Positions 19,474 to 52,730 of a stretch of 64,000 nt of DNA are shown here, piece after piece. The DNA is from Malacoraja senta (taxonomy: Eukaryota). Where the stretch lies: assembly GCA_038087875.1 (NCBI GenBank), contig CM075995.1:10604001-10668000 (forward strand). The letters run 5' to 3'. The notes beneath the pieces are model-generated. The model saw only the letters and a program-made list of their open reading frames with translations, did not search any database and was not told the DNA's origin. How positions within the stretch are numbered: position 1 is the stretch's first letter; every line of letters begins with the position of its first letter. A program made the translations under genes and the position numbers.

Positions 19474-19481
<8 letters not shown>

Positions 19482-19505
19482 AAATTAATAATTAAAATTA
19501 AACCA

Positions 19506-24400: not shown

Positions 24401-25482
24401 ACTTGATAGAGGTCTTTAAAATTATGAGCGGGTTAGACAGAGTGGACGTGGATACGCTTTTCCCATTGAGAGTAGGGAAGATTCAAACAAGGGGACATGA
24501 CTTGAGAATTAAGGGACAGAAGTTTAGGGGTAACATTAGGGGGAACTTCTTTACTCAGAGAGTGGTGGCTGTGTGGAATGAGCTTCCAGTGGAAGTGGTG
24601 GAGGCAGGTTCGATGTTATCCTTTAAAAATAGATTGGATGGGTATATGGACGGGAAAGGAATGGAGGGTTATGGTCTGAGTGCAGGTAGATGGGACTAGG
24701 GGGGAGTATTTATTTTTAATTTAAAAAAAAAAAAAAATGTTCGGCACGGACTTGAAGGGCCTGTTTCCGTGCTGTTATGGTTATATGGTTATGACGACAG
24801 TAAACTCTCTAGGGAGATAAATGGGCCTGCATTTAACAGTATCATACTCCAGGTCCGGGGAGCAGTGACTGTCTACAATCACTGTGTTAGTACACCAGTT
24901 GTTGTTCACGTACACACAGAGCCCTCCTCCTCTGCTCTTACCAGAGTCTTTTGTCATGTCATGACGCTGTGCGGTGTAGCCTGTTAGCTCGATAGCAGAG
25001 TCCGGAATGAGTGAATGAAGCCATGTCTCCGTGATCAACAGAATGCAGCTGTCCTTCACGGCGTTGTTAGCTGCAGTTTGTAGCCTTAGTTCATCCATCT
25101 TGTTAGCGAGGGATCTGGCGTTCGTGAGAAACAGGCTGGGAAGCAGTGGTTTGAGTGGCTGCCTCCGTAGCCTGGCTAGCGCACCGGCCCTGCCGCCTCG
25201 CTTTTTCCTTCTCTCTCTGCGCCGCCTTCGCCTCCTCCCCGCTGGGATGGTAATCCACGGAGAGCCGGGGCTCCTCGCTATGTCCACCGGGATCCTATGT
25301 AAACGGACAAACTCGGCTGTCACACTCCGCTCGCGACCAGCTCCAATCCTAAGGAGATCATGCTTGCTATAGACGTTGTTCGCCCGACAGTAAGTATGCA
25401 GGACAACATGTGCGAACACGAAAAACACAAAACACCAACCGGGAGAACATTTAGCCGCTGCAACTGTGTGCGCCGCCATCTT
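21437..25482 (-). mobile_element. Near full-length Rex1/Babar-type LINE (APE plus RT), frameshifted and interrupted by CR1
   Basis: 5' end AAGATGGCGGCG. APE motifs NARSL, TETWL, GGGLC, GDFN, SDH. RT motifs [27 protein letters not shown]-terminal KTKELIIDY and AATAAA..ATTCATTC tail. Confidence 0.88.
23899..24792 (+). mobile_element. 5'-truncated CR1 (young subfamily) inside the Rex endonuclease domain
   Basis: Near-identical to 2102-2756. It splits the host frame REFTVVIT / VYIPP. Confidence 0.92.
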
Positions 25483-25544
25483 ACAAAAAATAAATATATA
25501 TAACAAAATGTGAAAATATAATGAAGAGGTCTGAATACTTTCTG

Positions 25545-25827
25545 TATATATGTATAAATATATATAAATATATATAAATATATATAAATATATATATAAA
25601 TATATATATAAATATATATATAAATATATATATAAATATATATATAAATATATATATAAATATATATATAAATATATATATAAATATATATATAAATATA
25701 TATATAAATATATATATAAATATATATATAAATATATATATAAATATATATAAATATATATAAATATATATATAAATAAATATATATATAAATATATATA
25801 AATATATATAAATATATATAAATATAT
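25545..25827. repeat. AT microsatellite (TATATATATAAA-type)
   Basis: Directly visible in the sequence. Confidence 0.97.
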
Positions 25828-25948
25828 TCTGGGGTATTGGGTGTAGATTGCTGATAAAAAAATTTTTTAATACATTTTAAAATAAGGCTGTAACATAACA
25901 AAATGTGAAAATATAATGAAGAGGTCTGAATACTTTCTGAATGTCTGT
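25825..25948 (-). mobile_element. Displaced outer part of the Tc1 terminal inverted repeat
   Basis: The minus strand reads TA-CAGACATTCAGAAAGTATTCAGACC. It continues the Tc1 sequence broken at 21436. Confidence 0.8.
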
Positions 25949-26005
25949 ATGTCTGTTCAAATCTCTCAGACGACTGAAGGTGATTCAATGTGATACTGAA
26001 GGTGA

Positions 26006-28582
26006 TTCAAGAGTCAAGTCAAGAGTGTTTATTGTCATATGTCCCAGATAGGACAGTGAAATTCTTGCTTGCTGCAGCACAGCAGATTATGTAAACATAA
26101 TAGATAACGGGCGAAAAAAAGTTCAGTGTGTATATATATACACACATGCGTACATACTCAATAAATAAACAAATGTAGTGCAATAATAATAATAGTCTGT
26201 TGAACTTCAGAGCTTATTTGTTGTCGTGTTTAATAGTCTGATGGCAGTAGGAAAGAAGACAGTTTTCAGGCTCCTGTACCTTCTTCCTGATGGCAATGGT
26301 GAAATGAGTGTGTGGCCAGGATGGTGTGGGTCTTTGATGATGTTGGCTGCCTTTTTGAGACACCGACTTCGATAGATCCCTTCGGTGGTGGGGAGATCAG
26401 AGCCGGTGATGGGCTGGGCAGTGGTCACAACACTTTGAAGTCTTTTTCGCTCCTGGACATTCAAGTTGCCGAACCAGGTCACGATGCAACCAGTCAGTAT
26501 GCTCTCTACTGTGCACCTGTAGAAGTTTAAGAGAATCATCTTTGACACACCGAATCTCTGTAATCTTCTCAGGAAGTAGAGGCACTGATATGGCTTCTTT
26601 ATAATTGCATCAGTGTGCTGGGTCCAGGAAGATCTTCGGAAATATGCAAGACCAGGAATTTTTCAAGTTTTTGATCCTATTCACCACTATCCCATTGATA
26701 TAAACAGGACTGTGGGTCCTCAACCTTCCCAATGTCCACAATCCTTGGTTTTACTGATGTTGAGAGCTAGGTTGTTGTGTTGGCACCATTTGGGCGATCA
26801 GTCGATCTCACTTCTATACTCTGACTCATCCCCATCTGTAATTCGTCCAACGTCGCCGAACTTGATGATGGAGTTCGCACTATGTCCGGCTACGCAGTCA
26901 TGGGTATAGAGCGAGTACAGCAGGGGGTTGAGCACGCAGCCTTGAGGTGCTCCCATACTGATTATTACTGAGGATGATGTGTTTCAGTGAATGAGGAAGA
27001 TGAGGATCCAATTGCAGAGGGGTGCGCAGAGACCCAGTTCCGTGAGCTTGGTAACCAGCTTTTTTTTTCCAAAAAAATTATTCAATTATTATAAAATAAT
27101 ATTACACTACAATAAAACAAACCAGATCCCACCACCATAATACAATACAAACAAATAACCTTAATAAACTACTGTACAATTATCTTACACTCCTTGTCAA
27201 GAATGCATTCAACACCCTGTGGAGCCCAGCATACCGGAAATCCCCCAGGATGCCCGTGGACAGGGCGTATTCCCTTTCTAACCCCACCTGGGCATGGACG
27301 TAACCCCGGAAAAGGGGCAGGCAGCCAACTCGGGTAACGCCCTCCACCGCTTGGTGCTGTACTCACGGATGGCCAGCTTGGCCAGGCCCAGGTGCAACCC
27401 AACCAGGCATCTTCAGCCCTACCCTCTCCCCTACGCACAGGGTATCCAAAGATGAGGATGGTGGGCGAAAAGTGCAGCCAGAAGGCAAGGAGCAGCCCCT
27501 TTAGGTATTCAAACAGTGGCTGCAGCCTCACGCACTCCATGTACACGTGGTACACAGACTCTTCCAGCCCGCAAAAGTGGCAGGCGGCTGGCGAGTCTGT
27601 GAACCGTGAGAGAAACGGGTTGCAGGCAACACCTCGGTGCAATACCCTCCACCCCAGGTCCCCAATGTAGAGGGGAAGAATCCCTGCATAGAGAGACACC
27701 CACCGGGGACCCCCCTCGCGACCGGAAGGCAACACCGGAAGGTAACCAGCTTGTAGGGGATGATTATATTGAACATCAAGCTGTAGTCTTTAAACAACAG
27801 CCTGACGTAAGTGTTTTATTGTCCGTGTTCCAATGCGGAGTGGAGAGCCAGTGAGATCGCATCCTCCGTTGAGCTGTTGTGGCGGTAAGCGAACTGTATT
27901 AGGTCGAGGTACTTGTCGAAGTAGGAGTTGATATGCCCCGTAACCAACTTCTCAAAGCACTTCATCACCACAGACATTAGTGCCACTGGTCAATGGTCAT
28001 TGAGGCACATCACCTTACTCTTCTTTTGCACTGCTTTTATTGATGCCCTCTTAAAGCAGGTGAGAACCTCAGACCTCAGGTTTAAAATGTCCGCAAGAAC
28101 TCCAGCCAGTTGGTCTGCCAGGTTTTGAGAAATCGACCGGGTATACCATCAGGGACAGGCGCTTTCCGAGTGTGCACCCCCCTGAAGGATCTTCTGACCG
28201 GCCACTGTGATTGTGACTGTAATACCATCAGGGCGAATGGGGGCTCGGGAAGGCACATCAGTGTTCTCCCTATCAAAGCGTGCGTAGAATGCATTGAGCT
28301 CGTCATGGAGTGATGCTTCGCTGTCGTTTGAGCTGCCTCCTGATTTCGCCTTGTCGGAGGTGATGGTATTCAAGCCCTGCCACAGTTGCCAAACATCCAC
28401 CTCCCTTTTGGGACAATTCCCTTTTCGCCTTTTTTGATGGCCTTTTCAAAGTCGTATCTGGACTTCTTATAAACCTCTGCGTCACCGGACCTGAATGCCC
28501 GGGATCTGGTCTTAAGCAGAATGCGGATCGCATGGTTCATCCAAGGCTTCTGGTTAGGAAACACTCTGAAGGTTTTTGTTGG
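26006..28582 (-). mobile_element. Second Rex1/Babar-type LINE fragment, 5'-truncated and degenerate
   Basis: FPNQKPWM, ELNAFYARF, DYS..FN.I, FYRCTVESILT and a (CTTGA)-like tail. Confidence 0.85.
27062..27740 (-). mobile_element. Tx1/L1-clade 3' fragment with poly(A)
   Basis: zf-RVT region WRVLHR...CHFC...H....C, poly-T on the + strand, 12-bp TSD GGTAACCAGCTT (27050 and 27741). Confidence 0.85.
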
Positions 28583-28659
28583 AAGGTTCTGACTGACGCT
28601 AAGTTTTAATTAACTTTAATAGTAAGATTAAACGAGAACTTACCAGTTTAAAGTTTGAT

Positions 28660-31600
28660 AGTAAGATTAAACGAGAACTTACCAAGTTTGAAGTTTGACC
28701 TTTATTTTATGAGGAGTAACGTTGAGGGATTACGTGAAGAAGCCCCGTCCAGCCACACACGCGTCAATCTTTCAAAGCAGCGGAGTGACAATCACAGACG
28801 ATAATTACTGAAGTATGATAGTAAGATGCATAAAGACTTAGAACTACCAGCTTGATCTTTTTATGAGGGTGGGAGCGGAGGGCACGTAATCCCTCAACGT
28901 TACTCCTCATAAAATAAAGATCAAACTTCAAACTTGGTAAGTTCTCGTTTAATCTTACTATTTTACTTCGGAGTCACGTGAGTGACTACGTGAAGATTTC
29001 AAAGCTCTGTGATTTCACACCGTGGATTCAAATCCAGGTGTTCACTGCATCGATTGACTCTATTTGAGTAAGCACAATCAACAATGCATAACCACAACAT
29101 TTGAATGTAATCAGTTAATGGTTTTATTTATTTTAATAAAAATAACTAAAATTAGGCCCATTTATAATGGGGGATTTAATACTGTATCCAGCACGGCATC
29201 ACCAAACCCTCCGAGATCTTTAATCTCCTTGTGGTAATACTTGTGAAACATCTGTTCACTTGCCCATCCTGCGGCCGCGAGAATAAGGTCTATTGGCACG
29301 CTGAATCCCTGGCCGCTGATGTTGATGCCGCCCTCATGGAATGAGATTTAAATTTATCAGTATCAATACCTGAATATCTCAACACCTGTTTCAACCATCG
29401 TGAAATTGTTTGTGTTGATACTTTCTTATGAGGCTTTTTATGACTAATAAAAAATGCCAATTCGGCGCCTCTTAAAACTTGTGTTGTTTCTATGTAACAT
29501 TTCACATATGTTACTACACACAGTCGTGAATCTGTAGGTAATGCTAAAAATTCCAACTTGCATCCTGTGGACCCAGGTCTACTTTGCTTCAGAAAATCAT
29601 AGACATAGAATGTCACGGCATTTTGCCCTACTTTCATTCTATCAATTCTGAGTTTCTGTAATGTTTGAACTCTCTGCGCTGAAACTAATGCCATGAGCAT
29701 AACCAATTTCATGGTAATTTTGGATAATGACAGGGTTTCAACTGGATTCCAACTCCTTAGGAACATCAGTACATCTTTTACATTCCAAATTTCTGTATAC
29801 CTGGGTCTGGGAGGATTAGAGTTGAAATTCCTTTCATAAACCTACAGACCCAAGGATGTTCTCCAATTGGAGTTTGTTCTGATTCACTGCTTAAATATGC
29901 AGAGAGTGCACTTCATGCAGTATTAATTGCACTATAACTTAATTTCAATTCATAGTGTAGAGTTGAAAGAAACTCTATTACATCTGAAATTTCTACTGTG
30001 TTATATGCAATATTCTTTCCTGAACAAAACACCTCCCATTTCTTTATATAGGAAATGTACTGCTTCTGGGTACTATTCCTCCAGGCTGCTGTCATAACCT
30101 CCACCGTACGGTCTGATAATCCTTTTCCAAGATATGCCTTCTTAGAATCTGCAAATCAACAAACCAATACGATTATGTAAAGGATGTGATTCATTAGTCA
30201 CAGGGTGTACAAGCAGTTCAATCTGCTTTGGAATAACCATAAGGGGGTTTTTGATCATTTTTAACACCAGTGGGTACCATACCTGTGTAGGCCAATCTGG
30301 TACTACCAAAATCCCTGAGGCTTGAATCTTGTTTAATTTTCTGTATGCATTTGTGGATTAAACACAATGATGGAAAAGCATACAGAAACATACCACCCCA
30401 ATGTAGTGAGAAAGCATCCACCACTACTGCTCCAGGATCAGGTTCCCATGACACATACTTAGTCAACTGGTGGTTCAATCTTGATGCAACCAGATCACTT
30501 TCTGGCATTCCAAATTGTGTGATAATTTGTGTGAATATTTTCCGATTTAACATCCATTCTGTATTATCATTAAATTTACGTGATCTTTTGTCTGCAATTG
30601 TATTAATTTTTACCTGGTAAATATATTGCTGACAGCCAAATTTTTCTGGCAATACCCCAGGTCCAAATTTCATTTGCCAATTTATCACATGATTCTGATT
30701 TTATACCACCCATGTGATTTATGTATGCTACAGCTGTAGTATTGTCAACCTGTACCTGAACATGCACATTTCCCATATCAGTGCAATAAGCTCTAAGGCC
30801 GTAAAATGCGCCTAATAGCTCTAGATAATTGATTCCCAGATTTTCCAGCAAAGGTACTTCATTCACATTCCACCTACCTCCACAGCTGGAAATCATGTTA
30901 GTAGCACCCCAACTCAGCACACTTACATCAGTCTGTAGAGTGACGGAAGGTGTTTCTACCAGAACTTTTCTGGAAGTATTAGAAACATTGTTAATCCACC
31001 ATTCTATTTCTGTAATGGATTGAATTTGTTAATTTCATGGGCCTGTCAAAATGCCCTCTATTCATTTTTAACGCTTGTACCTTAGCTCTCTGTAAACATT
31101 GATAATGCAATGGTCCAAACGTGACCGCTGGAAACCCTGCAATTAATTTGCCACTTCTCTAATTGAAGGCGTGTCCTCGTTAATGGGTTTTATGCAACCT
31201 TCAATTAACTGCAGCTTTTTATCTTTTGGCAAAGTGATTACCATGTGTTCGGAGTTAATTGTGAATCCTAGGTAATCAATCTTTTTGCTTGGTAACAATT
31301 TAGATTTTTGTAGGTGAATAATGAAACCTAATTTCTCAAAATGTATTTGACTCTGGATACTGACAATTTTGCAGCAGCCAAAGTGTCCCCTACAATGAGG
31401 ATATCATCTAAATAAGCCATTAATACATGGCCCTCAGCTCTTAACAGAGCTAAAATTTGGTTTGAGCAATTTAGTGAATAATCTTGGTGCTGAAATCAGA
31501 CCAAGCAGAATAATATGCATTTTGCAGATCTATGCTTACCTTATAGCAATTCTTTGTGACTAGCTAAATGGCATTAGTAAATGTTTCCATTTTGAAATGT

Positions 31601-33564
31601 TTCTATTGTACATAAAGGTTAAGATTTGTCAGATCGGAAATGATTCTATATCCACCATCCCTTTTCTAGGAGAATATTCCTAGGAGAATATTTGACACAA
31701 ACTGATGGTGTTGTTCTCCTGACATTTATATCATCCTTTTCTGTATAAAGTTTTTTCAATTCTCCTTTGATCAACCCATTCTCTTCCTTTGAGAAAATCC
31801 GTGACCAGTTTGAATTATGCTGAATTGGAGGATCCAAACATGGAGAGAACTCAATTTTGAATCCTACAATGCTACATAGAATAAATGAATCATTTGTTAT
31901 TGATTGCCATTCTTTTAGGAAGAATCGTAACCTTCCCCCTATTTGTGAGTGTGAAACATTTGTTGTGTTTCTTACCAGACCAAGCCCCCTAACCTCGGGG
32001 TTTGCCACCGGCAGTTGTTGTCCCCTTCTAGTAGGCACATTGTAACCTCCACATATCCTCGGTGCAGCACGTCAACGTGTATACGAGAATGATAGGATTG
32101 TTCCTTCTCCAGCACCACATTTCGCCTGTAGGGATACTGCCTTCTCACCGCTCTGCTCAGCATAGGTGATCCTTTAGTTTCTTTGCTAGATTTTCTCCAA
32201 AACAGATTTAGGCATTTGTATATTGCATGGTTTGCAGAGCCTGCATACTTAGGATGAATATTTGGTCTTATTGCATTTTTATGAATACAATTTATTTCAA
32301 AGTGCACACTACACATGAGTGCTACATTTTGTTGTGAATACGATATATAACCTTCATCCAAACCACTGACCCCAGAAATTTCAGCACTTGTGTAATTTCA
32401 ATTCTTGTGAGTGTAAACCACTGCTCAAATTACCCATATCAAGTTTATTCACTGCTGTAACTGCTACAATTTCCCGGGTCTCATATTTTTTGATAGTCTC
32501 ATCCATGGTTAATTCCTGGGCTGATGGGAGAGTAGATAATTTATAGTCATAGCTATTTCCTCTCTCAAAGGTTCCCCTGTTACTCTGGGAACAGCAAAGT
32601 TTTGTGCCAGCCTTGGAACATTTTTGGCTCTGATAATGGGCTCTTGTCCTCATTTAAATCATCATCTAAATCTAGATATTCATTTTTATGTTGGGTAATT
32701 TCTGGCTCCCCTGTTTTAGGTAAGTCTCTGCCAGATTTCCCCTGCGCGGGCTCTCTTGTAGGCCCACGGACAGGCAGCCCTGCTTCAGGTGCTGCTGGCG
32801 CTGGCTCAATTCTAGGCCAACGCTTCATTATTTTTACTCTTTATATTTGTCGGTGCTGGCACATTTATCATTGCACGTTTGTGCTGCCTTTTGTTCAGGC
32901 ATTTCTAGTACTGGCTCTCCAATAGGCCAACACATAACTTGCCTTTTTTCTGGCATTTTTGGGCACTGGCTCTCCTGTAGGCCAACCTCTTTAATGTTTC
33001 TGCACAGGCATTCCTGATGGCTCTCCTGTAGGCCACCCTTGTGCCTGTTCCAAGGCACCTCCTGTGCTATACTTCATTGGCCAACACCGACTTAAATCCT
33101 CCTGTGGGGGTTCTTTACAAATCATCTGCCCCATAAGGAGTTAAAACGTTTTTGACCCTTGCAGTGTAATACTCTTTCCTGCCTGAGGAGGGCATACCTC
33201 CGGGTCTGACTCATCCGACCCTACAGGTCGGGACAATTTTTTTGCTGCCACTGACTCCTCTGACTGACGCCCGCTACCCTTAGGATCTGGGGTTTTACTA
33301 CGGTGCGTCCCTGGCCTCTCCTTCCCATTTCTCTATAATAAACTTGTGTGGAGCTCCACCAACAAGTCTAAACGGGAAGGAAACGCTCCTGTAAGTGAAA
33401 AGTAACTCCACTTACCTTCTTTTACTTTTGTCTTACTCACCGGCTGGAGGAACTCCTGCTCCTCCACACACGGTCATGAACGCTATGCGTCTGATCGATA
33501 ATGACGCGTGTGCGGCTGGACGGGGCTTCTTCACGTAGTCACTCACGTCACTCCGAAGTAAAAT
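28660..33564 (-). mobile_element. DIRS-A, full-length and degenerate, inserted in the 3' terminus of DIRS-B
   Basis: Both termini, ICR at about 28883-28995 and ITR pair at 28731-28766 / about 33502-33538. YR AQRVQ/HSMR, MT YAFP, RH INYLELL/VDNTTA, RT YLDD. Confidence 0.92.
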
Positions 33565-35272
33565 CGTTATTTTATGAGTTACGATGAGGGATTACGTGAA
33601 GATCCCGCCAGCCCGCATGCGCGTCAATCTTCAAAGCAGCGGTGTGAAATCACAGATAACAGCTGTTGAACTGAATATAGGAAGATTCGAGAAACTAGAA
33701 CTACCAGCTGAACTTTATGAGAGAGGGTTGGGAGCGGAGGGCACGTAATCCCTCATCATAACTCCTCATAAAATAAAGATCAAACTTCAAACTGGTAAGT
33801 TCTCGTTTAATCTTACTATTTTCAAAGCTCTGTGATTTCATGCCGTGAAAACGAGTCCACACAAGCACAACTGCATCAGTTGACCACAGATAAGGGAAAC
33901 ATTCATAATGCATACAGACATGATATAGATTTAAAACATGCTGATGCTTTTTAATGAACAAATAATAATAATAGTAACCCCTCTCATCCAGGAGGAAACA
34001 ATAAAATAGAACCTAAAATAGAGTTGGCAAATACCCCCGGTCTGGCAATGGATTATTATAAAATGTTTGGAAGCTCATTAGACCATCCTGCAGCCGCTAG
34101 GATGTGGTCCAGCGGAACGTAAATAACCCTTGCTGCTGATGTTGTAGCAGCCCTGGTGGAGTGAGATTTGAAAATATTAGTATCTACTCCTGCATAAGCC
34201 AAAACCCCGTTTTATCCACCTGGAGATGGTCTGAACTGATACCTTCTTATGAGGTTTTTTGTAACTAACAAAAATTGCTAGTATGAGAGCCTCTAAGGCT
34301 CTAGGTAACCTTGACGTATTGTTGTAAATGTGTGACCACACACAACGGAAGGTCCATGTGGTATGCCATGAAACTAGTTTGAGACCTGACGCCCCTGGGC
34401 TGCTCTGCTTAACTAAATCATAAACATAAAATATTATATTATTTGCAGATGTAACCATCCTGTCCAGTCGCAATTTATGTTGTGACTGGACCCGTTGCGC
34501 TGAGATCAGCGCCATGAGGATAACTACCTTATGAGAGCCGGCCCAAAGATAAGGATGTAGCTGGAGTCCCCTGGTGAAGTAGTGTTAACACAATGTCAAT
34601 ATCCCATACTTCCATGTACTTGGGCCTGGGAGAACGTGTTAAAAATATCCTTTATAAACTGGATATCAGAGGGTGAGACCCGACAGAGTGGGTCCCGCTC
34701 GCTGCAGCAAATGTGATGAGAAGGCACGTTTGGCACAGTTAATGGCACTATAACTTAATAGTAAGATTAAATGAGAACTTACCAGTTTGAAGTTTGATCT
34801 TTATTTTATGAGTTACGTTGGTGATTACGTGAAGAACCCCACCAGTGCGCCTGCGCGTCAATCTTCAAAGCAGCGGGGTGAAATCACAAAAAAACAACAA
34901 ACAAAGTAATATAGTTACATAATAAAACGAGTAATTCAAGAACTTCCATCTGACCTTTATGATAGAGAGTTGGGCCGTGGTGGGCACGTAATCACCAACG
35001 TAACTCCTCATAAAATAAAGATCAAACTTCAAACTGGTAAGTTCTCGTTTAATCTTACTTTTTTACTTCGGAGTCACGTGAGTGACTACGTGAAGATTTT
35101 AAAGCTTTGTGATTTCATGCCGCAGAACAAATCCCGGCTTCTCACTGCATTGATTGACTCGGAACGAGAAATCATCAATAATGCATTAATAATAACATTT
35201 GTACCACAAATGCAGTAATTCATTTATTTTAATAATGAAAATTAATCAGATCCCCTTTTAAACCAGAGGAAT

Positions 35273-36253
35273 TTATACAGAACTTAAAATAGTTTCTGCA
35301 AACAATCCCGCATTAACAATAGGCCGATGGTAAAACTGTTGAAACATCAACTCATTGGACCACCCGGCGACTGCGAGAATATGGTCGACGGGGACGTCTT
35401 TCGCCCTGGCCGCCGACGTTGCTGCTGCCCAAGTCGAGTGAGACGTACAAACATTAGTGTTAATACCAGCAGCTGTTAAGACTTCTTTTAGCCATCTTGA
35501 AATAGTCTGTACTGAGACTCTCTTGTGTGGTTTCTTGTGTGTGATAAACAACCCAGTTTCCGTATTTCTCAAAACCTTTGTGACCTCAATGTATTGTAAC
35601 AAATATGCCTTAATACAGAGACAAGGATCATTTGGATATGCTGTTAGCACAATTTTAAATCCCGTCACACCTGGCCTACTTTGCTTTAGTAGGTCATAAA
35701 TGTAGAATGTAACATTATCTTCAGCTACTTCCATCCTGTCTATTTGTAATCTTTGAAATGTCTGCACTCGTTGTGCTGTCACTAATTCCATAAGCATGAC
35801 CACTTTCATACTGAGTTTGGCCAAAGGCAAAGACACGCTTGGTGACCATTCACGAAGTACCTTAAGAACCACACTCACATCCCAGATTCTCATGTACCTA
35901 GGTTTAGGAGGTCTAGAATTAAAAATTCCTTTCATTAGTCTGGAGACAAGTGGGTGAGACCCAATAGGATTTCTTTCTGACTCCACAACCAAATATGAGG
36001 ACAATGCACTTCTGGCTGAATTAATTGCACTATAACTCAAACCTTCATCAAAATAAAGTGTTGACAGAAATTTTAAAACATTTGAAATATCTGCCGTACT
36101 ATATTCAACATTCTTTTGTACACAGAACTCTTCCCATTTCTTAACATAAGAAAGGTACTGTTTTTGAGTGCTCTTCCTCCAGGCTGCCGTAAGCATGTCC
36201 ACAGTACGCACAGACAGTCCTCGCCCCAGAAAAGGCCTTCTTAAAACCTGCAA
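35273..36253 (-). CDS. DIRS-C tyrosine recombinase (open frame, catalytic HxxR mutated)
   Basis: LSYSAINSARSA, AQRVQ, HSTW (R to W; TGG at 35429-35431, consistent with CpG decay), AGW and FY. Confidence 0.88.
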   Translation of the reverse strand: MQVLRRPFLGRGLSVRTVDMLTAAWRKSTQKQYLSYVKKWEEFCVQKNVEYSTADISNVLKFLSTLYFDEGLSYSAINSARSALSSYLVVESERNPIGSHPLVSRLMKGIFNSRPPKPRYMRIWDVSVVLKVLREWSPSVSLPLAKLSMKVVMLMELVTAQRVQTFQRLQIDRMEVAEDNVTFYIYDLLKQSRPGVTGFKIVLTAYPNDPCLCIKAYLLQYIEVTKVLRNTETGLFITHKKPHKRVSVQTISRWLKEVLTAAGINTNVCTSHSTWAAATSAARAKDVPVDHILAVAGWSNELMFQQFYHRPIVNAGLFAETILSSV

Positions 36254-36271
36254 ATTAACAAATCCAAACGA

Positions 36272-38004
36272 TCATATAATGGATGTTGTTCCCCTGTTAC
36301 CGGGTGCAGCAGCAGATCCCTTCTTTTTGGCTTTCATCAAAGGCTGTGTCGTTAATTCTAATATTAAGGGGAACCATGGCTGTGTAGGCCAATCTGGTAC
36401 CACTAGTACCCCTGAAGCAGCATCTTGCCTGATTTTAAGCAAACATCGGCTTATGAGGCAGAAAGGTGGAAATGCATATAAAAACATAACACCCCAATGT
36501 AGCGAGAAAGCATCAATCGCTACTGCTCCTGGATCTGGTTCCCATGACACATATCTAGATAGTTGATGATTTAGTCTAGATGCGAATAAGTCGATGTCTG
36601 GCATTCCAAACCTGATTACTATGTCATTGAATACATCTCGATTCAACATCCATTCTTTATTATCATGGAATTTTCTTGACCTGGTGTCTGCTATAATGTT
36701 CAATCTACCTGGTAGATGAATAGCTGAAATCCAAATATTCTTTTCGATACACCAAGACCAGATTTGATTAGCCATTTTGTCACATGACACCGACTTGATT
36801 CGACCCATATGATTAATATAGGCAACTGCTGTTGTGTTATCAACTTGAACTTGAACATGCAGATTAGTTGTGTTAGAACAGTAAGCTTGGAGTCCATAGA
36901 AACATCCTAAAAGCTCCAAATAGTTAATTCCCCATGTCTGCAGTAACAATGACTCTTCCTGATTCCATCTGCCTCCACAGCTGGATGCCAAATCTGTTGC
37001 ACCCCATCCTAGTGCACTGACATCAGTTTGTGATATCATGGAAGGTTGTTCAATCAGTACTTTGCTGAAACTGCTTGAGACATGTAGAATCCACCACTGC
37101 AGATCAGAAACAGCATTTGTTGTTAGTTGCATGGTTCTATCAAAATGACAGCATGCATCCTCAGTGTCTGTTGTTTAATTCTCTGCAGCTGTTGATAATG
37201 TAATGGCCCGTATTGAACTGCTGGGAATGCTGCTACTAATTTACCCAGTACTCTAGCCACCTGTCTGATTGAAGGTTTTTGCTCGTTTAACAGATTACTG
37301 CAATCTTCAATCAACTCCACCCTTTTTTCTCTGGGCAAAGTAATTTTCATGTGAACTGAATCAATTGTGAACCCCAAATAATCAATTGAGGTGCATGGTA
37401 TTAACCTTGATTTCTTTGGATGAATTAGAAACCCCAAACTTTCAAAAGTGGATTTCACAACTGAAACAGGTGATTCTGTTGACTCTTTTGTCCTTCCTAT
37501 AATCAGGACATCATCCAAGTATGCCATTAGTACATGCCCCTGGCTTCTCAGCAACCCCAAAATTGGTTTTAACAATTTGGTGAATATTCTGGGAGCTGGA
37601 GTTAACCCATTAGGCAGAGCTTTAAACTGCCATAACTGGTTCATCCAGGTAAATTTAAGATACTACCTATCTTCCAAATGAACAGACACTGAATAATATG
37701 CATCTTTTAGATCTATAGTTGCCATATAACATGCTTTTGAAATAAGCTGCTTGGCAGTCACAAACGTCTCCATTTTAAAATGTCTAAATTCAACAAAAGG
37801 ATTCAGACTTGTCAAGTCTAAAATAATCCTACATCCTCCATCCTTTTTTGGTCGAGGGAATACATTTGACATAAATTGGTGAGTTTGGTAAATTGATTTT
37901 TCAATAACACCTTTTTTATATAGGTTTTCAAGTGCAGCTTGAACCTCCATCACTTTTTTTTGTAAAAAGTGGAGAATTCTGCTAGGAACATGCTGGACAG
38001 GCAA
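36272..38004 (-). pseudogene. DIRS-C pol: RT, RNase H and adenine methyltransferase-like domain, frameshifted
   Basis: KKDGGCRIILDL, HFKMET, IDLKDAY, LPNGL..APR.FTK, YLDD, QTDVS, INYLELL, DNTTA, DLFASRLN, YAFPPF. Confidence 0.92.
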
Positions 38005-38222
38005 ATCTTAATTTGGATTGAATTCAATTGAATCCTTGTATACTACTCAGAATTACAAAGTCTGAAGTAATCTGCTTCCAATCTTTATAGAAGAGATGTA
38101 ATCTGCCCCCAACTTTTGGGGTTACTACAGTTAGTATGTTCCCATGAGAACCAGGTCCACCTAACTCAGGTCATTTGAGTGACCTGTGGTCCCTGGATTC
38201 TCCCAGGAGGACCCACGCTGGT

Positions 38223-39386
38223 TCATGCTCCCACTGCAGGTCGCCAACTACGCCCCTGCGATGATGAGCGACTTGGTCCTGGTCCAGCATCAGTATGATG
38301 TCTGAAAGGATACCTCCTCTTTACAGACTTTCCAACCATCGATGTTTTCATCAATCCGGCTGTTTTCGCTTCATCCTCCAACTCCTTTACACGTCTCCCG
38401 AGATCCTCTCCAAAGAGTAAGTTGGGTAATTGTATATTACTTGGTTTGCAGAGTGCTGCGAATTTAGGATTGATAGTAGGCCGAATAGCACACTTCCTCA
38501 GACAATTGATCTCGAAGTGGGTGCTGCATAGCAACCCCAGTGCCTCCTGATGCAACTCCGTCATCTCCTGGCTTCTATCTGTTATTCTGGCAAAAGCAGT
38601 TATTCCAGAACCCAGGAGCTTTAATATTCTCTGCAATTTTACTTCTTGACCTCTCATAGTCATGCTCATCTGACTCCAGATCACTTGATTCTCTGCTGGT
38701 GCTTTCAACAACACACAGTTACTTGGAGTCTCATGCTTTCTTGAAGTGTCATCCATGTCAAGCTGTTCCAGCTGATGGGAAACCAAGTAATTTATTAGGG
38801 AGGCCAATTCTTCTCCTAATGGCTCTCCTGACCCTGACGGGGCAGCGAATCGTACTGCCAGAGGTGGAATATCTGGCAGCTGCCATTCTTCGCCTTGGAC
38901 AGCCTCACCGTCAGAGTCGGGGTCTGAACTCTCATGACGCGGGGCACGCGCCTCATCCCTGAGGGTGCATTCCAACAGCCCTTTGCTAGGTGCTGCTGAG
39001 CTGCTTTCTGCAGCCTGGATTTTGCTACACTCTTCTCTGAGTGTGTTTCTTTCCAAAAGCCTGTGCATGAGGCTTTCCATTTGTGATATCCGCTCAAAAG
39101 CAGTATCCAGCCCTGGAGTTACCTCCATTTCCTCGGACTCCTCCTCCGTGGGCCGTATGGATTTGAACTTCGCCTTGCGCCCGACTGGCGCTGACTGCGT
39201 TCTTTTCAGCCCCAAATCCACAGTCGCTACACTCTCCGCTGGCGACTGTACTGGGGTCAGAGGCGGCTGGTCGCCGACCGCAATCTCGCGACTCTCTACT
39301 GGCTGTGCCGCTCGCCTCCTCCCCTTGCCCGTTTTTTTCATGGCGCCTGTGGAAAAAATCCCCACAGACCCACAGCAAACGGACAC
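38223..39386 (-). CDS. DIRS-C gag-like ORF1
   Basis: First long ORF after the 5' terminus. It is homologous to ORF1 pieces of DIRS-A and DIRS-E (HFEINCLR..AIRP..NPKFA.L, LLFG.DL). Confidence 0.8.
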   Translation of the reverse strand: MSVCCGSVGIFSTGAMKKTGKGRRRAAQPVESREIAVGDQPPLTPVQSPAESVATVDLGLKRTQSAPVGRKAKFKSIRPTEEESEEMEVTPGLDTAFERISQMESLMHRLLERNTLREECSKIQAAESSSAAPSKGLLECTLRDEARAPRHESSDPDSDGEAVQGEEWQLPDIPPLAVRFAAPSGSGEPLGEELASLINYLVSHQLEQLDMDDTSRKHETPSNCVLLKAPAENQVIWSQMSMTMRGQEVKLQRILKLLGSGITAFARITDRSQEMTELHQEALGLLCSTHFEINCLRKCAIRPTINPKFAALCKPSNIQLPNLLFGEDLGRRVKELEDEAKTAGLMKTSMVGKSVKRRYPFRHHTDAGPGPSRSSSQGRSWRPAVGA

Positions 39387-41174
39387 GGAAATACTTCGAA
39401 AAAAGTTTATATTTACCTTGGTAGTTCACAACTACAATTCCACTAGAGGAGCTCACGTCCGTTTACGCCAATGCGTCTGACGTAATGGCGCACTGGCGGG
39501 GTTCTTCACGTAGTCACTCACGTGACTCCGAAGTAACATTTATTGTCAAAGACCCATTTGAAAATGAACTCCAAGACGTCAGTTGTCCGTGCCGAATTAC
39601 ATGTAACATTAGCATTTAAACAAAATGCTTCCCATCTCCTGAAGAGGCAATGTATTGCTTTTTTGGTGCTATCCCTGCACTCTGCAGTGAGCACACACAT
39701 GGATCGGTCTGACAACCCGAGCCGCAGGAACAGTCGTCTCAGAGTCTGCAAGTCAATGAACTGATTTTATCATGCAGAGGCTGGTTTCTTGAGTCACAGG
39801 CTGAACCAGCAAAGTTTTATGTTTCGAATAACCATACAAGGTTCTATTATAATTCCCAACATAAGCGAGAACCTTGGCTGCATAGGCCAGTCAGACAGTA
39901 TGAAAAATCTGAAGCAGGATCTTGCTGAATTTATTGCAAGACCTGACTGATGAGGCAAAATGGAGGAAAGACATAAAAGAACATTCCTCCCCCGTGTAGC
40001 GAGAATGTATCTCTCGGCACTGTCATGCCACATATTTTTGCAACTGGTGAATGAGCCTGGATGCAAACATATCGATATTCGATGGTCCATTGAGCCATAA
40101 TGTCATAAAATACTTTGTGATCCAACATCCATTCTGAGTTGTCATTGATTTTACGTGGTGATACACCAGCGCCAAATGAGGTTAGGTAAATTATCCCAGG
40201 ATACTTTGACTTGATTGACCCATGTGACTAACATATGCCACCAACACGGTGTATCAACTTGGAATAGAGCATGCAGATTATGCATATTCGCACAATAACC
40301 CTTTAACCCATAGAAAGCACCTAGTGTCTATAGGTAGTTGATACCAATAACTGAAGAATAGGTAATTCATGCAAATCCCATCTGCCTCCGTGACTAGAGA
40401 TGGCATTCGTAATTTTCCATCTTTGAGCACTAGCATCAGTTTGTAATATAACTGAAGATTTACTGACCAAAACTACTGGAGCAATGCTGAATACTGTTCG
40501 TCCACCATTGTGACTTTGGTAGCTTCAGATGGTAATAGCATAGGTCTGTTAACAATGACCTACATGGCACTTGAGAGGTTACTACTTTGCACGTTGTAAG
40601 TTCTGATAATGCAAAGGCCCAACTTGCACAGCTGAAACACAGCTACTATATTGCCAATTACACTTGACGAATAGAAGGCTGCTTCATAACAACAAGGTTG
40701 TTACAGGCTTCTATTAATTCCAATCTCTTGCCCCAGGGCAGAGTCACAGACAAATTAATAGTTAAAGGTAAATCCCAATAATCAATAACTCTAGTTGGTA
40801 TCAACTTAAATTTAACTGGATGGATGAGGAACCTAAATTTCTCAAACATATTTTGCAGCTGAAACAGTTGATTTGAGCAAAATACAGTGTTTAGAATATC
40901 ATCCAGCTAAGCCATAACAAGTGTTTTTGAGCTCTGAGCTGTCCAAGCACCGGTTTTAGTAATTTGGGAAATAACCTGGGAGCTGAGGTTTGCCCATTTT
41001 GCAACGCATTAACTGTTATCATTGCCCCATCCAGATAAATTTCAAATGTCTCCGGTGATCCCTGTGAATGGGACCTGAATAGTATGTATCTTTGAGATCG
41101 ATGCATGCCATAAAGACATTCGAGTTAAATCAAGGATGAACCTTCATCCTCCATCTTTCACAATGAACAGGCCA

Positions 41175-41492
41175 CGCCTGCCATAATTCCGTGCCCGACT
41201 CGAACGACAACTCTGGCCAGATACCCGAGCCTGTCTCAAAAGGCAATCCTGGCCATAATACTGAGCCTGCCTCAAAAGACAACTCTGGCCATAATTCTGA
41301 GCCGGCCTCGAAAGACAACTCTGGCCTTATTTCCGAGCCTATCTTGAAAGGCAATCCTGCCCATAATACTGGGCCTGCCTCGAAAGACAACTCTGGCCAT
41401 ATTTCCGAGCTTGTCTCGGAAGGCAATCCTGGCCATAATACTGAGCCTGCCTCGAAAGACAACTCTGGCCCCAATTCCAAGCCATGCTTGGA
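41175..41492. repeat. 36-bp minisatellite, about 8.5 copies, inside a foreign segment in DIRS-B
   Basis: Translates as 12-aa units DNSGH(N/I)SEPASK / GNPGHNTEPASK. Confidence 0.9.
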
Positions 41493-43529
41493 ACGCTTGT
41501 ATACTGTGCAGTATAAACTAATCACATGTTATCATTTTAGTTTATAAACGGATCTGAATCTCATGTTATCATTGTCATTTGTACAAAAACAAGTGTAAAT
41601 ATTACCAACTTGTAAATGGTCCACATACCCCATGTTTCAGAAGAACCAGACCCACCTACCTCCATGGTTACCGGTGGTCTTATGGTTAGCCCAAAGGCCC
41701 GTGATGTGGGTTCTATTTCCGTCCTTGATTGGAGAGTAGGACTGGTAGGGTGTGTGGATTTCATATTTTTCCTGAGACCAGATTGGGCCTTGGCCTGCCC
41801 AGCTTTCAAGCTGCCACCAGCTTTCAAGCTGCCACCAGCTTCAGTGAACCGCTTACTGCCGATGAAGGGGTGGGGTGTGTCGTTGCCGAAACGATGAAGC
41901 TTTGCTCATCATCGGTACCTTGATTAGTCCGACAGCTTTTGTTTCCTCATCCAGGTATTACCTGTTGGATAAGTCTTACCTGAAGAAAAGATTCGGCGGC
42001 TGGTTTCATTGCCTGGATTTCATGCCTCCAATGTCACCCCTGATAGCGCTGTTCACTGCCAGCACTTGTAGCATGAGGGGAACTCTGGCCCCTTCCGGGT
42101 TTTCTGCCAACGGCTGGAAACCAACTCTTCCGGCACCAACACCTTCGTTTGCGAGTATTCCCTTGAAGCCATATCCATGTGCTCCAGTATGTTCCACGGA
42201 CATTCTTTCGAATTTGAAGTCAGTTACACACTGACCACTCGCACTCCTCTCCACAGAGAGGGAGATTCATAGGCAGCCCTGAAAACAGGTGCTGCTGCAG
42301 GCCCCTGAGGATACCTGCGCTGATACGGCCCCTCCTACGGACCTATATCAGGATGGAGCATCACATTTGTGGGATAAACGCCCGAGGGTTCAATCCATGC
42401 TCCATCTGGGTTAAACGTCCGTGGACGCACCCAGGTATGTCGGAGGGGAACCCTCCTGGCCTGACTCGTCCGAGTCCATAGGCCTGACCAACTTATTCTT
42501 GGATTTACTCCCTTTCTGGGGAACCACAGCGGTCTGTGAGCCGCTGACCACACTGTCAGCGACTCGGGTGGCGAAACCGACTTACTTTTGGCCTTACCCC
42601 ATTTCTGGGGAACCACAGCGGTCTGGGAGCCGCTGACCACATTGTCAGCGACTTGGGTAGCGAACCAGATGCCTGCCGGCTACCCGCGCTTCCGCGGTCC
42701 GGTCCGGGATCTCCCCACGGTCCATAACCGGTTTCCCCGCGGCCCGTCCGGACTTCGGCCCGAAATTATCCAGCAGGAAAAACTCTGTAAGAAGAGATTC
42801 CTGCAAGAAAAAACAGAACCTGGCGATAAGTTCAAAACTTAACTGCAGGTTTAAACTTACCGCTGGAAGGAGCAACGCGCCTGCCAGTCAGTCATTACGC
42901 AATGCGTTAGACGTAATGACGCGCATGCGGGCTGGCGAGCTCTTCATGTAGTCACTCACGTGACTCCGAAATAAAATGTATGCAAAGCCTTTACCACTTG
43001 AATAACTCTCTGCACTGATGTTCTTGTGTTCCTCTGAGCGAGCAATTCATAGTGCTCCCACGCTGGAAATGTGTCTATTTATTCGCTCCTCCTGCCTGCA
43101 CATGAAAAGAACACTCCATGCCGATCAACAGATCTGAGCCAGGACGATATGCCCAGTGATCTCCTTCCTAGTGCCTATTTCAAACCCTCGCCCCTTCCTC
43201 TGCTTCTGTTGAATCGTTCATTGAAGGCTCGGTAATTCCCACACCGGTTGCTAGAAGATTCCTACAGCCCTGCTGGGAAATATACGGCATTTCTCCAGTT
43301 AAATGGGTAAAGCAGTCATTAATTTAAACAAGAACTGATATTTATAAAACCTGTTCAAATGTACATTAAAACAGGCAATGACGAGTTTAAAATGTAAAAG
43401 GCAGCTGAGCAAACAGACATACTGTCCATTGGCAAGACAGTGAACTGTTCTGGTAAACATCAGCTGAATGTAAAACAATGGGGTCTGTTACTTGGCCGAC
43501 ATCAAACCACTAATCCTCAGCATAGGTTA

Positions 43530-44774: not shown

Positions 44775-45416
44775 AGGGTGAGTGGGCAAATGCATGGCAG
44801 ATGCAGTATAATGTGGATAAATGTGAGGTTATTCACTTTGGTGGCAAAAACAGGAAAGTAGACTATTATCTGAATGGTGGCCGACTAGGAAAAGGGGAGA
44901 TGCAACGAGACCTGGGTGTCATGGTACACCAGTCATTGAAAGTAGGCATGCAGGTGCAGCAGGCAGTGAAGAAAGCGAATGATATGTTAGCATTCATAGC
45001 AAAAGGATTTGAGTATAGGAGCAGAGAGGTTCTACTGCAGTTGTACAGGGTCTTGGTGAGACCACACCTGGAGTATTGCGTACAGTTTTGGTTTCCAAAT
45101 CTGAGGAAAGACATTCTTGCCATAGAGGGAGTACAGAGAAGGTTCACCAGACTGATTCCTGGGATGTCAAGACTTTCATATGAAGAAAGACTGGATATAC
45201 TCGGCTTGTACTCGCTAGAATTTAGAAGATTGAGGAGGGATCTTATAGAAACTTACAAAATTCTTAAGGGGTTGGACAGGCTAGATGCAGGAAGATTGTT
45301 CCCGATGTTGGTGAAGTCCAGAACAAGGGGTCACAGTTTAAGGATAAGAGGGAAGTCTTTTAGGACCGTGATGAGAAAAAAAAATTTCACACAGAGAGTG
45401 GTGAATCTCTGGAATT
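44775..45416 (+). mobile_element. CR1 3' fragment, host of DIRS-E; continues at 55693-55903
   Basis: NLWN/SLPQK coding is split exactly by DIRS-E. The tail (TTTCTATG)n lies at about 55882-55903. Confidence 0.9.
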
Positions 45417-45430
45417 TTACTTTGGAGTCA

Positions 45431-45621
45431 TAGAAATATAGAAACATAGAAACAAAGAAAATAGGTGCAGGAGGGGGCCATTCGGCCCTTCGAGCCAGCA
45501 CCGCCATTCATTGTGATCGTGGCTGATCATCCCCTATCAATAACCCATACCTGCCTTCTCCCCATATCCCTTGACTCCACTAGGCCCTAGAGCTCTATCT
45601 AACTCTCTCTTAAATCCATCC
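45431..45621 (-). mobile_element. Short CR1 3' end inserted in the DIRS-E 5' terminus
   Basis: (CATAGAAA)n tail and GGCCATTCGGCCCTTC hairpin. It separates GGAGTCA from GTGACTACGTG. Confidence 0.85.
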
Positions 45622-48254
45622 AGTGACTACGTGAAGCCCGCCAGTCCGCATGCGCGTCATTACATCTGATGCATGGCGCAACGATGGGCTGGCAGGCATG
45701 TAGCTCCACCAGCGGTAAGTTTTAAAAACCCTCAGGTAACTTAAAAAACTTAGTTGAGGGCGTTTTCTGCGGTCGGTAAGTCTTGTTGCAGGAGCAAGTC
45801 GGACCATGGAGAAAATGACTAATGAAATGGTCAAGGCGGGCCTCTGGGAGAGCAGCTATAGTGCGGGTAGCGGGTGGCCGTCGATCTCACCTTCAAAGTC
45901 ACTGGCGGCACTGCCAGTGGCTTCCGACGTGGTGCCGGTTTGTAGCACCATGGCTGCTCCGGTGGGACGGAAAGCCACTAAGAAGTCGGTAAGGCCCATT
46001 GACTCGGATGAGTCGGGCCAGGAGGGTTCCCCTCCCACAATAGATAGCGTCTTCGGACGTCTGTCCAGGATGGAGCTCCTGATGGAGAGGATGTTCCATC
46101 ATGATATGCTCCAGCAAGAGGAGCTTTATATCCGCGTGTCTCCTCGGGGGCCTGTGGCAGCGGCACCTGTTGAAGGGCTGCATAATGTCTCCCTCTCGGA
46201 GGAGGAGAGCATATGGGGTCAGTTTTGTTCTCACTCCAAGTTCGGAGGTGTAGCCGGTGAGCATACCTCAAGGCAAGAAGGCCGCGAACCAGGGGTGCCA
46301 AGCATGGCATCTAAATTTGCTATACCGACCGGAACTGTGGAACCACTGGATGCGGACCTGGCTATGACTATAAATTACATGGCCTCACGCCAGCTGCAAG
46401 ACCTCACATTGGAAGAAACTTCCAAAAAATACAAGACACCCGCCAATTGTGCCTCGATCAAATGCCGACTGTGAACCACGCTACCTGGGGTCACATGGGT
46501 GTAGGTATCAGAGCCCAGGAAGTGAGGCTCAAGAAGATATTAAAGATGCTTGCTTCAGGCATTACAGCTTTTGCTAGGTCGGTCGATGGAGGGCCCCTGT
46601 CTGAGGTGGAGAAGGATGCTCTGGCCCTAATGTGCAATGCACATTTTGAAATAAACTGTCTCAGAAACAGTGCTATCCGTCCTACTCTGAACCCCAAGTT
46701 TGCAGCACTATACAAATCTAGCAATGTGCAGCTGCCGAATCTACTGTTCAGTGATGACCTACCAAAACGGGTCAGAGAGTTGGACGACGAGGCAAAAAGG
46801 GTCGGCCTCATAAAAGCCCAACCGACTAGCAAAATTCCACTTTGGCGGCAGCACCCCTACAAGCGGTTCACTGAAGCTGGTTCAGGCCAAGGACCAAGTC
46901 CGGCCTTGCAAACCATGCACAATTGGCGCACTCCAACATTCTTCCCCTCCAGAACTCGGGGGAAGAAGTTTCCACCGACAACCATGGAGGTAGGTGGATC
47001 TGGTTCTTTTCAGAACATGTCATGTATGGATCAGTTACAAGTTGGTGGGAGATTACACTAGTTTTTCAATGAATGGTGTAGCATAACATCAGATTTGTTT
47101 ATACTGCACATATACAAGGGTTCCAAATAGAATTCCTTTTCAAATTGCATCCACCTACACAGCATACACCAAGCCGGACATTGGTTTTTTCACAACAAGA
47201 ATCTTTAGATGTACAAGCTGAAATTGAAACGTTATCTAACTAAGGGGTAATTGAGAAGTCGTTTCATCAATCTCACCAATTTGTGTCTAATATATTTCCT
47301 AGACAAAAGAAGGATGGTGGGTGTCGAATCATTCTTGATCTAACTCGACTTAACTCCTATGTGCAGTATAAACATTTCAAAATGTAAACTTTTGTTACTG
47401 CTAAACAACTGATTTCCAAAGGATGCTATATGGCATGCATAGATCTTAAAGATGCATACTATTCAGTACCCATTCATTACAATCACCGGAGATATTAGCT
47501 GGATGAGGCAACGATGGCAGTTTAAAGCATTGCCTAATTGGTTAACTTCGGCTCCTAGATTATTTACAAAGTTGTTAAAGCCTGTGTTGGGCCTACTCCG
47601 GGCTCAGAATCATATAGTAATGGCCTATTTGGATGATGTCCTAATCATAGGCAAGACTCGGAAATCAGCTGAATTATCTGTTTCAGCTACCAAACTCATG
47701 TTTGAGAGGTTGGGGTTTCTCATCCTTCGAGTTAAATCCAAATTGATACCATCTGGAGTCATTGATTATTTGGGATTCCCCATTAATTCAACTCACATGT
47801 CTGTGACTCTGCCTAGAGGCAAGAGATCAGAGTTAATAGAAGCTTGTAACAATCTTGTTGATGAGCAACCATCTTCTATTCGACAGGTGGCTAGTATAAT
47901 TGGCAAATTAGTGGCTGCTTTTCCAGCTGTACAGTTTGGGCCATAACGATATCACAATTTACAATGTGCAAAGAAGCAGGCACTCAATAGATATGCAGGT
48001 CATTTCAATCAACCCATGCGGTTACCAGCTGAAGCCATTGATGAGTTACAGTGGTGGATAGCGAATATTTGGCATTGCTCCAGTAAAATTCTGATTGATA
48101 AACCTTCAGTTATTTTACAAACTGATGTTAGTGCTCTAGGATGGGGAGCTACTGATACCATCTCTAGCTGCGGTGGCAGATGGAATGTGCATGAGGCATT
48201 AATTCGTCAATCACATGGTATTAACTATTTAGAGTTGTTGGGAGCACTCTATGG

Positions 48255-51200: not shown

Positions 51201-51886
51201 AAAGTAGGCATGCAGGTGCAGCAGGCAGTGAAGAAAGCGAATGGTATGTTGGCCTTCATAGCAAGGGGATTTGAGTATAGGAGCAGGGAGGTTCTACTGC
51301 AGTTGTACAGGGTCTTGGTGAGACCACACCTGGAGTATTGCGTACAGTTTTGGTCTCCAAATCTGAGGAAGGACATTATAGCCATAGAGGGAGTGCAGAG
51401 AAGGTTCACCAGACTGATTCCTGGGATGTCAGGACTTTCATATGAAGAAAGACTGGATAGACTTGGCTAATACTCGCTAGAATTTAGGAGATTGAGAGGG
51501 GATCTTATAGAAACGTTCAAAATTCTTATGGGGTTGGACAGGCTAGGTGCAGGAAGATTGTTCCCGATGTTGGGGAAGTCCAGGACAAGGGGTCACAGCT
51601 TAAGGATAAGGGGGAAATCCTGATGAGGAAAAACGTTTTCACACAGAGAGTGGTGAATCTCTGGAACTCTCTGCCACAGAGGGTAGTTGAGGCCAGTTCA
51701 TTGGCTATATTTAAGAGGGAGTTAGATGTGGCCCTTGTGGCTAAGGGGATCAGGGGGTATGGAGAGAAGGCAGGTACGGGATACTGAGTTGGATGATCAG
51801 CCATGATCATATTGAATGGCGGTGCAGGCTCGAAGGGCCGAATGGCCTACTCCTGCACCTATTTTCTATGTATCTATGTATCTATG
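48255..51886 (+). mobile_element. Long CR1: ORF1 SGNH-esterase C-terminus plus ORF2 (APE with internal deletion, RT) and 3' tail
   Basis: CLPGA, HIGTND, DGLHLN; NARR, TETWL, SDH; QHGF, LDFQKAFD, GVPQGS, FADD; (TATCTATG)n tail. The DIRS RH frame LGALYG / LKAYC is split around it. Confidence 0.93.
50200..50497. mobile_element. MITE of about 300 bp with imperfect TIRs
   Basis: AAGGCCTGACTCAC..TGCGGTCATTGGTGG against inverted AAGGCTCTGTCTTAC..TGCGGTCATCGGCGG. TA or TTA TSD in host CCAGTTAGTCTA. Confidence 0.82.
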
Positions 51887-52730
51887 ACTTAAAGGCGTAT
51901 TGTACTAGTATGCATGACTTGCATGTTCAGCTTTAGATTGACAACACTACAGCAGTAGCATACGTTAATCACATGGGTGGAATCTAGTCGGTATCATGTG
52001 ATAAATTGGCTAACCTTATTTGGCATTGGTGTATTACAAGAAACATCTGGATTTCAGCTATCTACTTACCAGGTAGATTTAACATGGTGGCGGACATCAG
52101 GTCACGAAAATTCAATGACAACACAGAATGGATGTTGAATCATGAAATATTTAATGATATTGTCGCTCGGTATGGCGTACCAGATATTGATTTGTTTGCA
52201 TCCAGACTAAATCACCAGCTACCAAAGTATGTTTCATGGGAACCAGACCCAGGGGCAGTAGCGGTAGATGCATTCTCGCTACACTGGGGTGGAATGTGTT
52301 TATATGCATTTCCCCCATTTTGCCTCATCAGTTGGTGCTTGCTTAAGATCGAGCAGGACTCCGCCTCAGGCGTTTTGGTAGTTCCCGACTGGCCTACACA
52401 GCCATGGTTCCCACTCGTTCTGAGACTAATAACACAGCCTTTTATGGCTGTCCCCAAATGCAGTAACCTGCTGGTTCACCCTGTGACTGGGGAGAACCAT
52501 CCACTACATGACCGTATTAATCTATTGATTTGCAGATTCTGAGGACACAGTTCCTGGGGCTCGGACTATCAGGTCGTACGGTGGATGTGATTACTGTGGC
52601 CTGGAGGGATAGTACTAAAAAACAATACATCTCTCATATCAAGAAATGGGAGGTGTTCTGCTTGCAGTCGAACATATCATATCACACGGCAAGCATACCT
52701 GATGTGTTGGAATTTCTTTCCACACTATAT

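Follow-up and report, generated by a model that had tools for sequence, protein, structure and literature searches.

How did two DIRS retrotransposons come to lie within a third one, all in the same orientation, and does such a nest betray a preference of these elements for DNA of their own kind? The question is raised by a locus of Malacoraja senta (GenBank assembly GCA_038087875.1, contig CM075995.1), analysed in a window of 64,000 nucleotides (positions 10,604,001 to 10,668,000 of the contig; all coordinates below are those of the window). On the minus strand of 28618-42977, three sets of gag-like, reverse transcriptase (RT), RNase H/methyltransferase (MT) and recombinase homology were present. 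The triple nest is confirmed: DIRS-A and DIRS-C interrupt an older DIRS-B, and the junctions bear out both the nesting order and the shared orientation that an earlier note on this DNA had proposed. The double hit on one host was most likely chance nesting in a region saturated with transposable elements, in which DIRS DNA made up about one sixth of the local target and DIRS-B was probably not recognised as a DIRS element. The parts follow one another along the plus strand as listed.

28618-28658, minus strand: severed right tip of DIRS-B (outer part of its right extension); terminal trinucleotide, 28618-28620; agreement with the internal complementary region (ICR) of DIRS-B at 38 of 39 bases; an extra base typical of DIRS-A is absent
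28659-33563, minus strand: DIRS-A (4905 bp) with both of its termini but coding-dead; its target, ATC in element sense, lies 39 bp within the right tip of DIRS-B
28885-28996, plus strand: ICR of DIRS-A, which contains the circle junction in the order right end, ATT, left end
29293-29841: PF00589 match (Pfam) of DIRS-A
33564-34759, minus strand: DIRS-B right inverted terminal repeat (ITR), ICR, 3' untranslated region and C-terminal part of the tyrosine recombinase (YR)
33744-33822: ICR of DIRS-B, its left-end half lost through a 35-bp deletion
34760-39539, minus strand: DIRS-C, 4780 bp, inserted at ATT in the YR gene of DIRS-B
38223-39425, 37123-37662, 36272-37174, 35273-36271 and 34987-35096, minus strand: gag-like open reading frame (ORF), RT, putative RNase H/MT region, YR and ICR of DIRS-C, with domain matches to PF00078, PF00589 and PF13495 and a weak match to Dam
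39540-42977, minus strand: DIRS-B YR N-terminus, pol, gag region and left ITR, with the terminal trinucleotide at 42975-42977

The position of DIRS-A is given by a stretch of 39 bp at 28620-28658 that looks like a duplication and had been interpreted as the severed tip of DIRS-B. This interpretation holds: the 39-bp tip and the DIRS-B segment that follows DIRS-A tile the ICR of DIRS-B with neither gap nor overlap, and the extra base present in the tip and in the ICR of DIRS-A is absent from the 39-bp tip. Scored against the four ICRs, the tip reached 73 with that of DIRS-B and 68, 68 and 68 with the others, the remainder of DIRS-B 45 with its own and 40, 33 and 40 with the others, all by small margins. 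The resumption of DIRS-B, placed at 33565 before, is equivalent to our 33564, since the bases AT are common to the two ends of DIRS-A. For DIRS-C, the recombinase frame of DIRS-B reads FDN up to 39540 and continues with LSYSAIN from 34758, thus the removal of the guest restores the frame as the earlier note had stated. With DIRS-C left out, its recombinase aligns to that of DIRS-B as a single high-scoring segment pair (residues 20-263). Logan contigs from 4 of 24 public runs were compared with 28000-40400; among 588 joints and 7771 loose ends, 15 and 24, respectively, were listed, and none of these identified the host of another copy. In all four runs contigs bridge 34757-34759 to 39538-39543; these contigs represent other B-like copies, not this locus, and 11, 7, 9 and 11 contigs per run cross the DIRS-C site of such copies in the three joint rows listed. 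The locus's own junctions rest on the assembly, because they were spanned by no contig among those listed from the four runs. A contig joint from 28641 to 33576 was considered as the empty site of DIRS-A and rejected, 12 other letters lying in between; it belongs to a related variant.

Each element has its own ITR pair, as had been noticed: the scores of left against right ITRs are highest on the diagonal for all four elements, including the DIRS-E described below (63, 50, 43 and 50 for A, B, C and E), though the cross-score of E-left with B-right (48) comes near the own-pair values. In DIRS-B and DIRS-C alike, the right extension is three bases shorter than the element's own ICR, and the difference falls on one and the same GAG repeat (33575 and 34810); contigs with the extra GAG at 33575 were present in all four runs. 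DIRS-B further contains tandem repeats in its gag-to-pol and 5' regions (36 bp x8 at 41180-41483 and 89 bp x2 at 42487-42664). The DNA directly hosting DIRS-B (42978-43520 and 28589-28617) is non-DIRS. A LINE-like (long interspersed nuclear element) fragment, presumably of the REX1/L2 class, ends abruptly about 30 bp from the right tip of DIRS-B, and an old CR1 begins about 0.55 kb to the right of the element. A hidden older DIRS as host of DIRS-B was rejected: the flanks gave only tblastx scraps (e=0.006, 0.024 and 0.93) and short blastn matches with e of at least 0.058.

By structure and ends, A, B, C and E are classified as DIRS1-like tyrosine-recombinase retrotransposons. Identity in the diagnostic part of the ITRs is 33/34 in A, 28/30 in B, 23/24 in C and 28/30 in E. 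A right extension and an ICR complementary to both ends, which overlap at the 3-bp circle junction, are complete in A and C; the ICR lacks the left-end half in B and the junction bases in E. A search with terminus motifs located three left and four right ends as well as three ICRs. The same pattern gave no match in viral contigs; an exact 21-base terminus match in a metagenome contig (L001, 803-823) lies within a gene that looks prokaryotic and shows no further DIRS character, and was dismissed as chance. The Pfam scan of the nest region yielded matches in 5 of 12 ORFs. RT was recognised in C (PF00078, E 5.7e-15, with YLDD) and by tblastn homologues in A, B and E; a tyrosine recombinase 3' of pol exceeded the cut-off of PF00589 in C and A, the recombinase of C reading HSTW in place of the family motif HSTR. 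Between RT and YR, weak Dam-like signals (PF05869) were obtained in C (E 0.0086) and E (E 0.0045), both under the curated cut-off, and no Pfam match to RNase H was obtained in the DIRS copies scanned. The place expected for gag ORF1 is occupied in C by an ORF of 400 aa that has homologues in A and E; it matched no Pfam family. All copies are coding-dead, with longest stop-free stretches of 183 aa in A, 135 aa in B and 400 aa in C. The description of the elements as full-length is thus correct for the termini, both of which are present, and fails for the content, as no copy is coding-competent and the ICR of DIRS-B is 35 bp short. Their assignment to distinct subfamilies stands: A, B and C are mutually 58-69% identical across RT, RNase H-MT and YR, with terminal repeats about 90-95% alike between subfamilies and interiors about 60-70%. 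As the host of A and C, B must be the older element, and its age is also borne out by the internal-repeat mismatch (B 6.0%, E 3.9%, C 3.1%, A 2.1%, over about 100-140 bases each). At 85% likeness, the depth of B-like YR/pol is about equal in runs X1 (organism A) and X19 (organism F), and the interiors of A-like and C-like copies have a much lower depth in runs X1 and X6; read depth gives a weak hint that the B subfamily is the older and a shared one.

The terminal trinucleotides are ATT/ATT in B and E, ATT/ATC in A and ATG/ATT in C, without target-site duplication. In element sense, B, C and E had entered at ATT, whereas the target of A was ATC. In the published model (PMC3266345, PMC7192593), a circular intermediate recombines at its 3-bp junction with an identical target trinucleotide without causing a duplication. 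The target trinucleotides, which agree with the circle junction at two or three of three bases, match the prediction of this model and support the ordinary insertion route. B integrated first, into non-DIRS DNA, and A and C entered B later in two independent events, most likely via the usual route of the family. In each event the circle junction (ATT) would have recombined with a matching target trinucleotide, leaving one trinucleotide per end and no duplication. The order of insertion, the breakpoints, the trinucleotides and the absence of a duplication can be read directly from the locus; we infer the circular intermediate and the catalysis by the YR from the published model. The insertions are also plainly out of register with B, which excludes homologous recombination. 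DIRS-A sits 39 bp out of register, and recombination of its circle with the end of B would leave a complete tip after the left end of A; the tip observed is split, not repeated. DIRS-C entered the YR gene of B, whose coding sequence and that of C are about 60% alike. Neither the layout of A nor the site of C in the YR gene agrees with in-register homologous recombination with a resident copy.

A fourth DIRS copy in the window served as control.

45414-55692, plus strand: DIRS-E, both ends at ATT, within a CR1 of the same orientation
about 45431-45621, 48257-51880, 52728-52917 and 53169-55144: non-DIRS blocks interrupting DIRS-E

In three other CR1 copies of the window, the sequences that flank DIRS-E adjoin directly and overlap by 3 bases, so that its reported location inside a CR1 was verified. 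Among the four DIRS copies of the window, A and C lie in B, E in CR1 and B in non-DIRS DNA. As a host, E is about as large as B; it received the four non-DIRS blocks and no DIRS, B received two DIRS and no CR1. An inverted fragment of a CR1 3' end interrupts the left tip of DIRS-E (45414-45628) after 17 bp; at the far junction a 7-base word is shared, and four tip bases are missing. The block at 52728-52917 is an A+T-rich insert of 190 bp within the recombinase gene of DIRS-E.

Repeats cover about 88% of the window and DIRS DNA 29% (self-matches plus annotated intervals). Gypsy, Tc1-like and LINE pieces also occur, and 5 of 10 ORFs scanned matched such families or their tails at or above the cut-off. 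The CR1 and DIRS types would fit a cartilaginous fish, probably a skate or ray. Gypsy/DIRS1 elements make up 2.5-3.7% of five batoid genomes according to a preprint (bioRxiv 10.64898/2026.10.27.761883); for a batoid host, the window is at least eightfold enriched. This enrichment fits either a region that retains insertions or homing. The stretch 1-11927 contains a Gypsy-type element that carries a CR1 piece within it and recurs with a period of 4971 bp; its copies are 99.4-99.6% identical and differ in the lengths of their RT ORFs, and the repeat is either a recent tandem duplication or an assembly artefact.

That repeat, together with the lack of a listed contig across the locus junctions and the report of 28615-28698 as a 39-bp tandem repeat by TRF, speaks for a reading in which there is no nest at all: a tandem duplication of the tip of A, homologous recombination between copies or a mis-assembly of repeats. 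Such an origin is very improbable. The tip and the remainder of B are exactly complementary parts, the tip is without the diagnostic base of A, all junctions fall on the family trinucleotide, and the YR of B is contiguous across DIRS-C and bridged in all four runs; the junction layout with its split tip rules out both a tandem duplication of the tip and homologous recombination. With the nest accepted, its origin by chance would mean that mobile elements of all classes gather in the region and are retained there, most likely the reason why both guests hit B. Clumping is indeed seen beyond DIRS: E harbours four non-DIRS blocks, a CR1 sits 17 bp from its tip, and E itself lies in the orientation of its CR1 host. 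Neither by position nor by homology are the sites hit in B related to the incoming circles. Under uniform insertion, 0.05-4.9 co-oriented double nests are expected per genome, assuming 10,000-30,000 guests, 3,000-10,000 hosts and 2.2-4 Gb (contig depth was used solely for the order of magnitude of the assumed copy numbers). Such nests are therefore expected somewhere in a genome, yet rare in a given window unless the region is enriched in DIRS, as it is here. In our null, B and E made up 16.5% of the DNA prior to the arrival of A and C, and all values are post hoc. The probability that both young copies fell into any DIRS is 0.027; for at least two of four insertions in DIRS in any orientation, age order ignored, it is 0.13. 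Several points weigh against chance. With co-orientation included, the probability for both young copies drops to 0.007-0.009 and that for at least two of the four, again regardless of age order, to 0.037-0.048, and one of two insertions within 40 bp of a tip has a probability of 0.034. Composition accounts for neither host nor orientation, because ATT is only slightly denser in B than in non-DIRS DNA (per strand, about 21 against about 19 per kb) and is almost evenly divided between the strands of B (103 sense, 93 antisense). By analogy, the self-insertion habit documented for the DIRS family in Dictyostelium would point the same way, and the local DIRS excess over the batoid values could itself be due to homing.

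A homing across subfamilies is the strongest competitor of chance nesting, though doubtful. Here the complex of circle and recombinase would be recruited to resident DIRS DNA, via conserved termini or ICR, bound YR or DIRS chromatin, and would integrate co-oriented at a nearby ATT or ATC. Both clearly younger copies lie in B and both are co-oriented (within-window P 0.007-0.05), the termini are far more alike across subfamilies than the interiors, and A entered the right extension, where A and B match at 70/75; a preference is reported in Dictyostelium and asserted for zebrafish (PMC5941688), and reports on nototheniid fish describe pericentromeric hot spots of DIRS1. These arguments are countered by a sample of two that was picked after the fact and by the hosts of B and E, which are non-DIRS, while E received no DIRS. 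The site of C lies about 0.9 kb from the ICR and 1.2 kb from the right end of B and shows no in-register homology to the junction of C; the ICR of B lacks its left-end half, and the layout of the A junction excludes homologous recombination as proposed for Dictyostelium. The earlier step from the nest to DIRS-into-DIRS targeting is accordingly not carried by two post hoc cases with P of about 0.04-0.05 over all four DIRS insertions. Its suggestion that recombinase binds near the host tip is unsupported and was rejected as evidence, given C in the middle of the recombinase gene of B and an unrelated CR1 17 bp from the tip of E. Core sites of tyrosine recombinases extend roughly 15-20 bp from the crossover, and this CR1 lies nearer to the tip of its host than A does. 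Another reading, an improbable one, is that the recombinase favours a longer, A+T-rich sequence, ATT or ATC plus a following AA, that DIRS sense strands offer slightly more often; this would mimic homing although DIRS DNA as such would not be recognised. The motif AT[TC]AA occurs on the element strand at three of four targets (A, B and C), and B has 13 such sites in sense and 9 in antisense, with a density of 2.8 per kb where non-DIRS DNA has 1.8-2.2; the target of E does not conform, only four sites are available, and the excess in density is insufficient for two insertions. Altogether the data lean somewhat to a preference and fall far short of demonstrating one. We consider chance nesting the most likely explanation; that DIRS subfamilies sharing only their termini integrate preferentially and co-oriented into one another, by out-of-register trinucleotide recombination and not by homology, is unlikely.

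As it stands, the locus shows nested DIRS1-like elements at base resolution and offers four readable target sites; it is of value for annotation and otherwise ordinary. If the cross-subfamily preference were true, homing could be measured on thousands of copies and would provide a readout of the target choice of the DIRS recombinase, which a passage of a 2020 paper terms experimentally untested (PMC7192593). If it held genome-wide, a second-hand statement on vertebrates would become a measured fact, homology-driven and site-specific targeting could be separated, and the DIRS hot spots in fish heterochromatin would be better explained. The claim of DIRS-into-DIRS insertion in a vertebrate is not new. 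According to a passage of PMC5941688, many zebrafish DIRS1 lie in pre-existing copies, which is termed homing there; the statement is backed by citations to a 1985 Dictyostelium paper and a 2008 review, and it could not be traced to primary data. PMC6387122 mentions homing once, and a table in PMC5977194 gives the insertion preference as a family trait. Passages retrieved by term search from PMC9210276 (Xenopus), PMC9341512 (zebrafish) and PMC4157794 contained none on DIRS target choice. A genome-wide test of DIRS-in-DIRS enrichment in vertebrates was not found in the literature searched, which was largely without subscription papers, including the Goodwin and Poulter series.

The elements resemble the DIRS1-like elements described by Piednoel et al. 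2011 (PMC3266345) in their ITRs, right extension and ICR with a 3-bp circle junction, in ATT ends without target duplication, and in the succession of RT, a weak, putative MT region and YR. Mismatches between start and end trinucleotides, as in A and C, are also present in Table 3 of that paper; the copies here are 4.7-4.9 kb long and coding-dead, those in the table rows 5.2-6.3 kb. The parallel drawn before to DIRS-1 of Dictyostelium discoideum is borne out by passages of PMC7192593, PMC5633606 and PMC5006619, which report insertion of DIRS copies into pre-existing ones. There, however, the excerpts describe a strong preference within one family that forms centromeric clusters and is ascribed to YR-mediated homologous recombination. 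In the nest, hosts and guests are 60-70% alike internally, the insertions are out of register, and two of four copies lie in non-DIRS DNA. DIRS1 of fish (Auvinet et al., PMC5941688 and PMC6387122) is likewise a vertebrate DIRS1 clustered in repeat-dense regions; the evidence given there is fluorescence in situ hybridisation, whereas the present nest is base-resolved and a single case. It is a neatly resolved example of a known element family, inserted by a known route.

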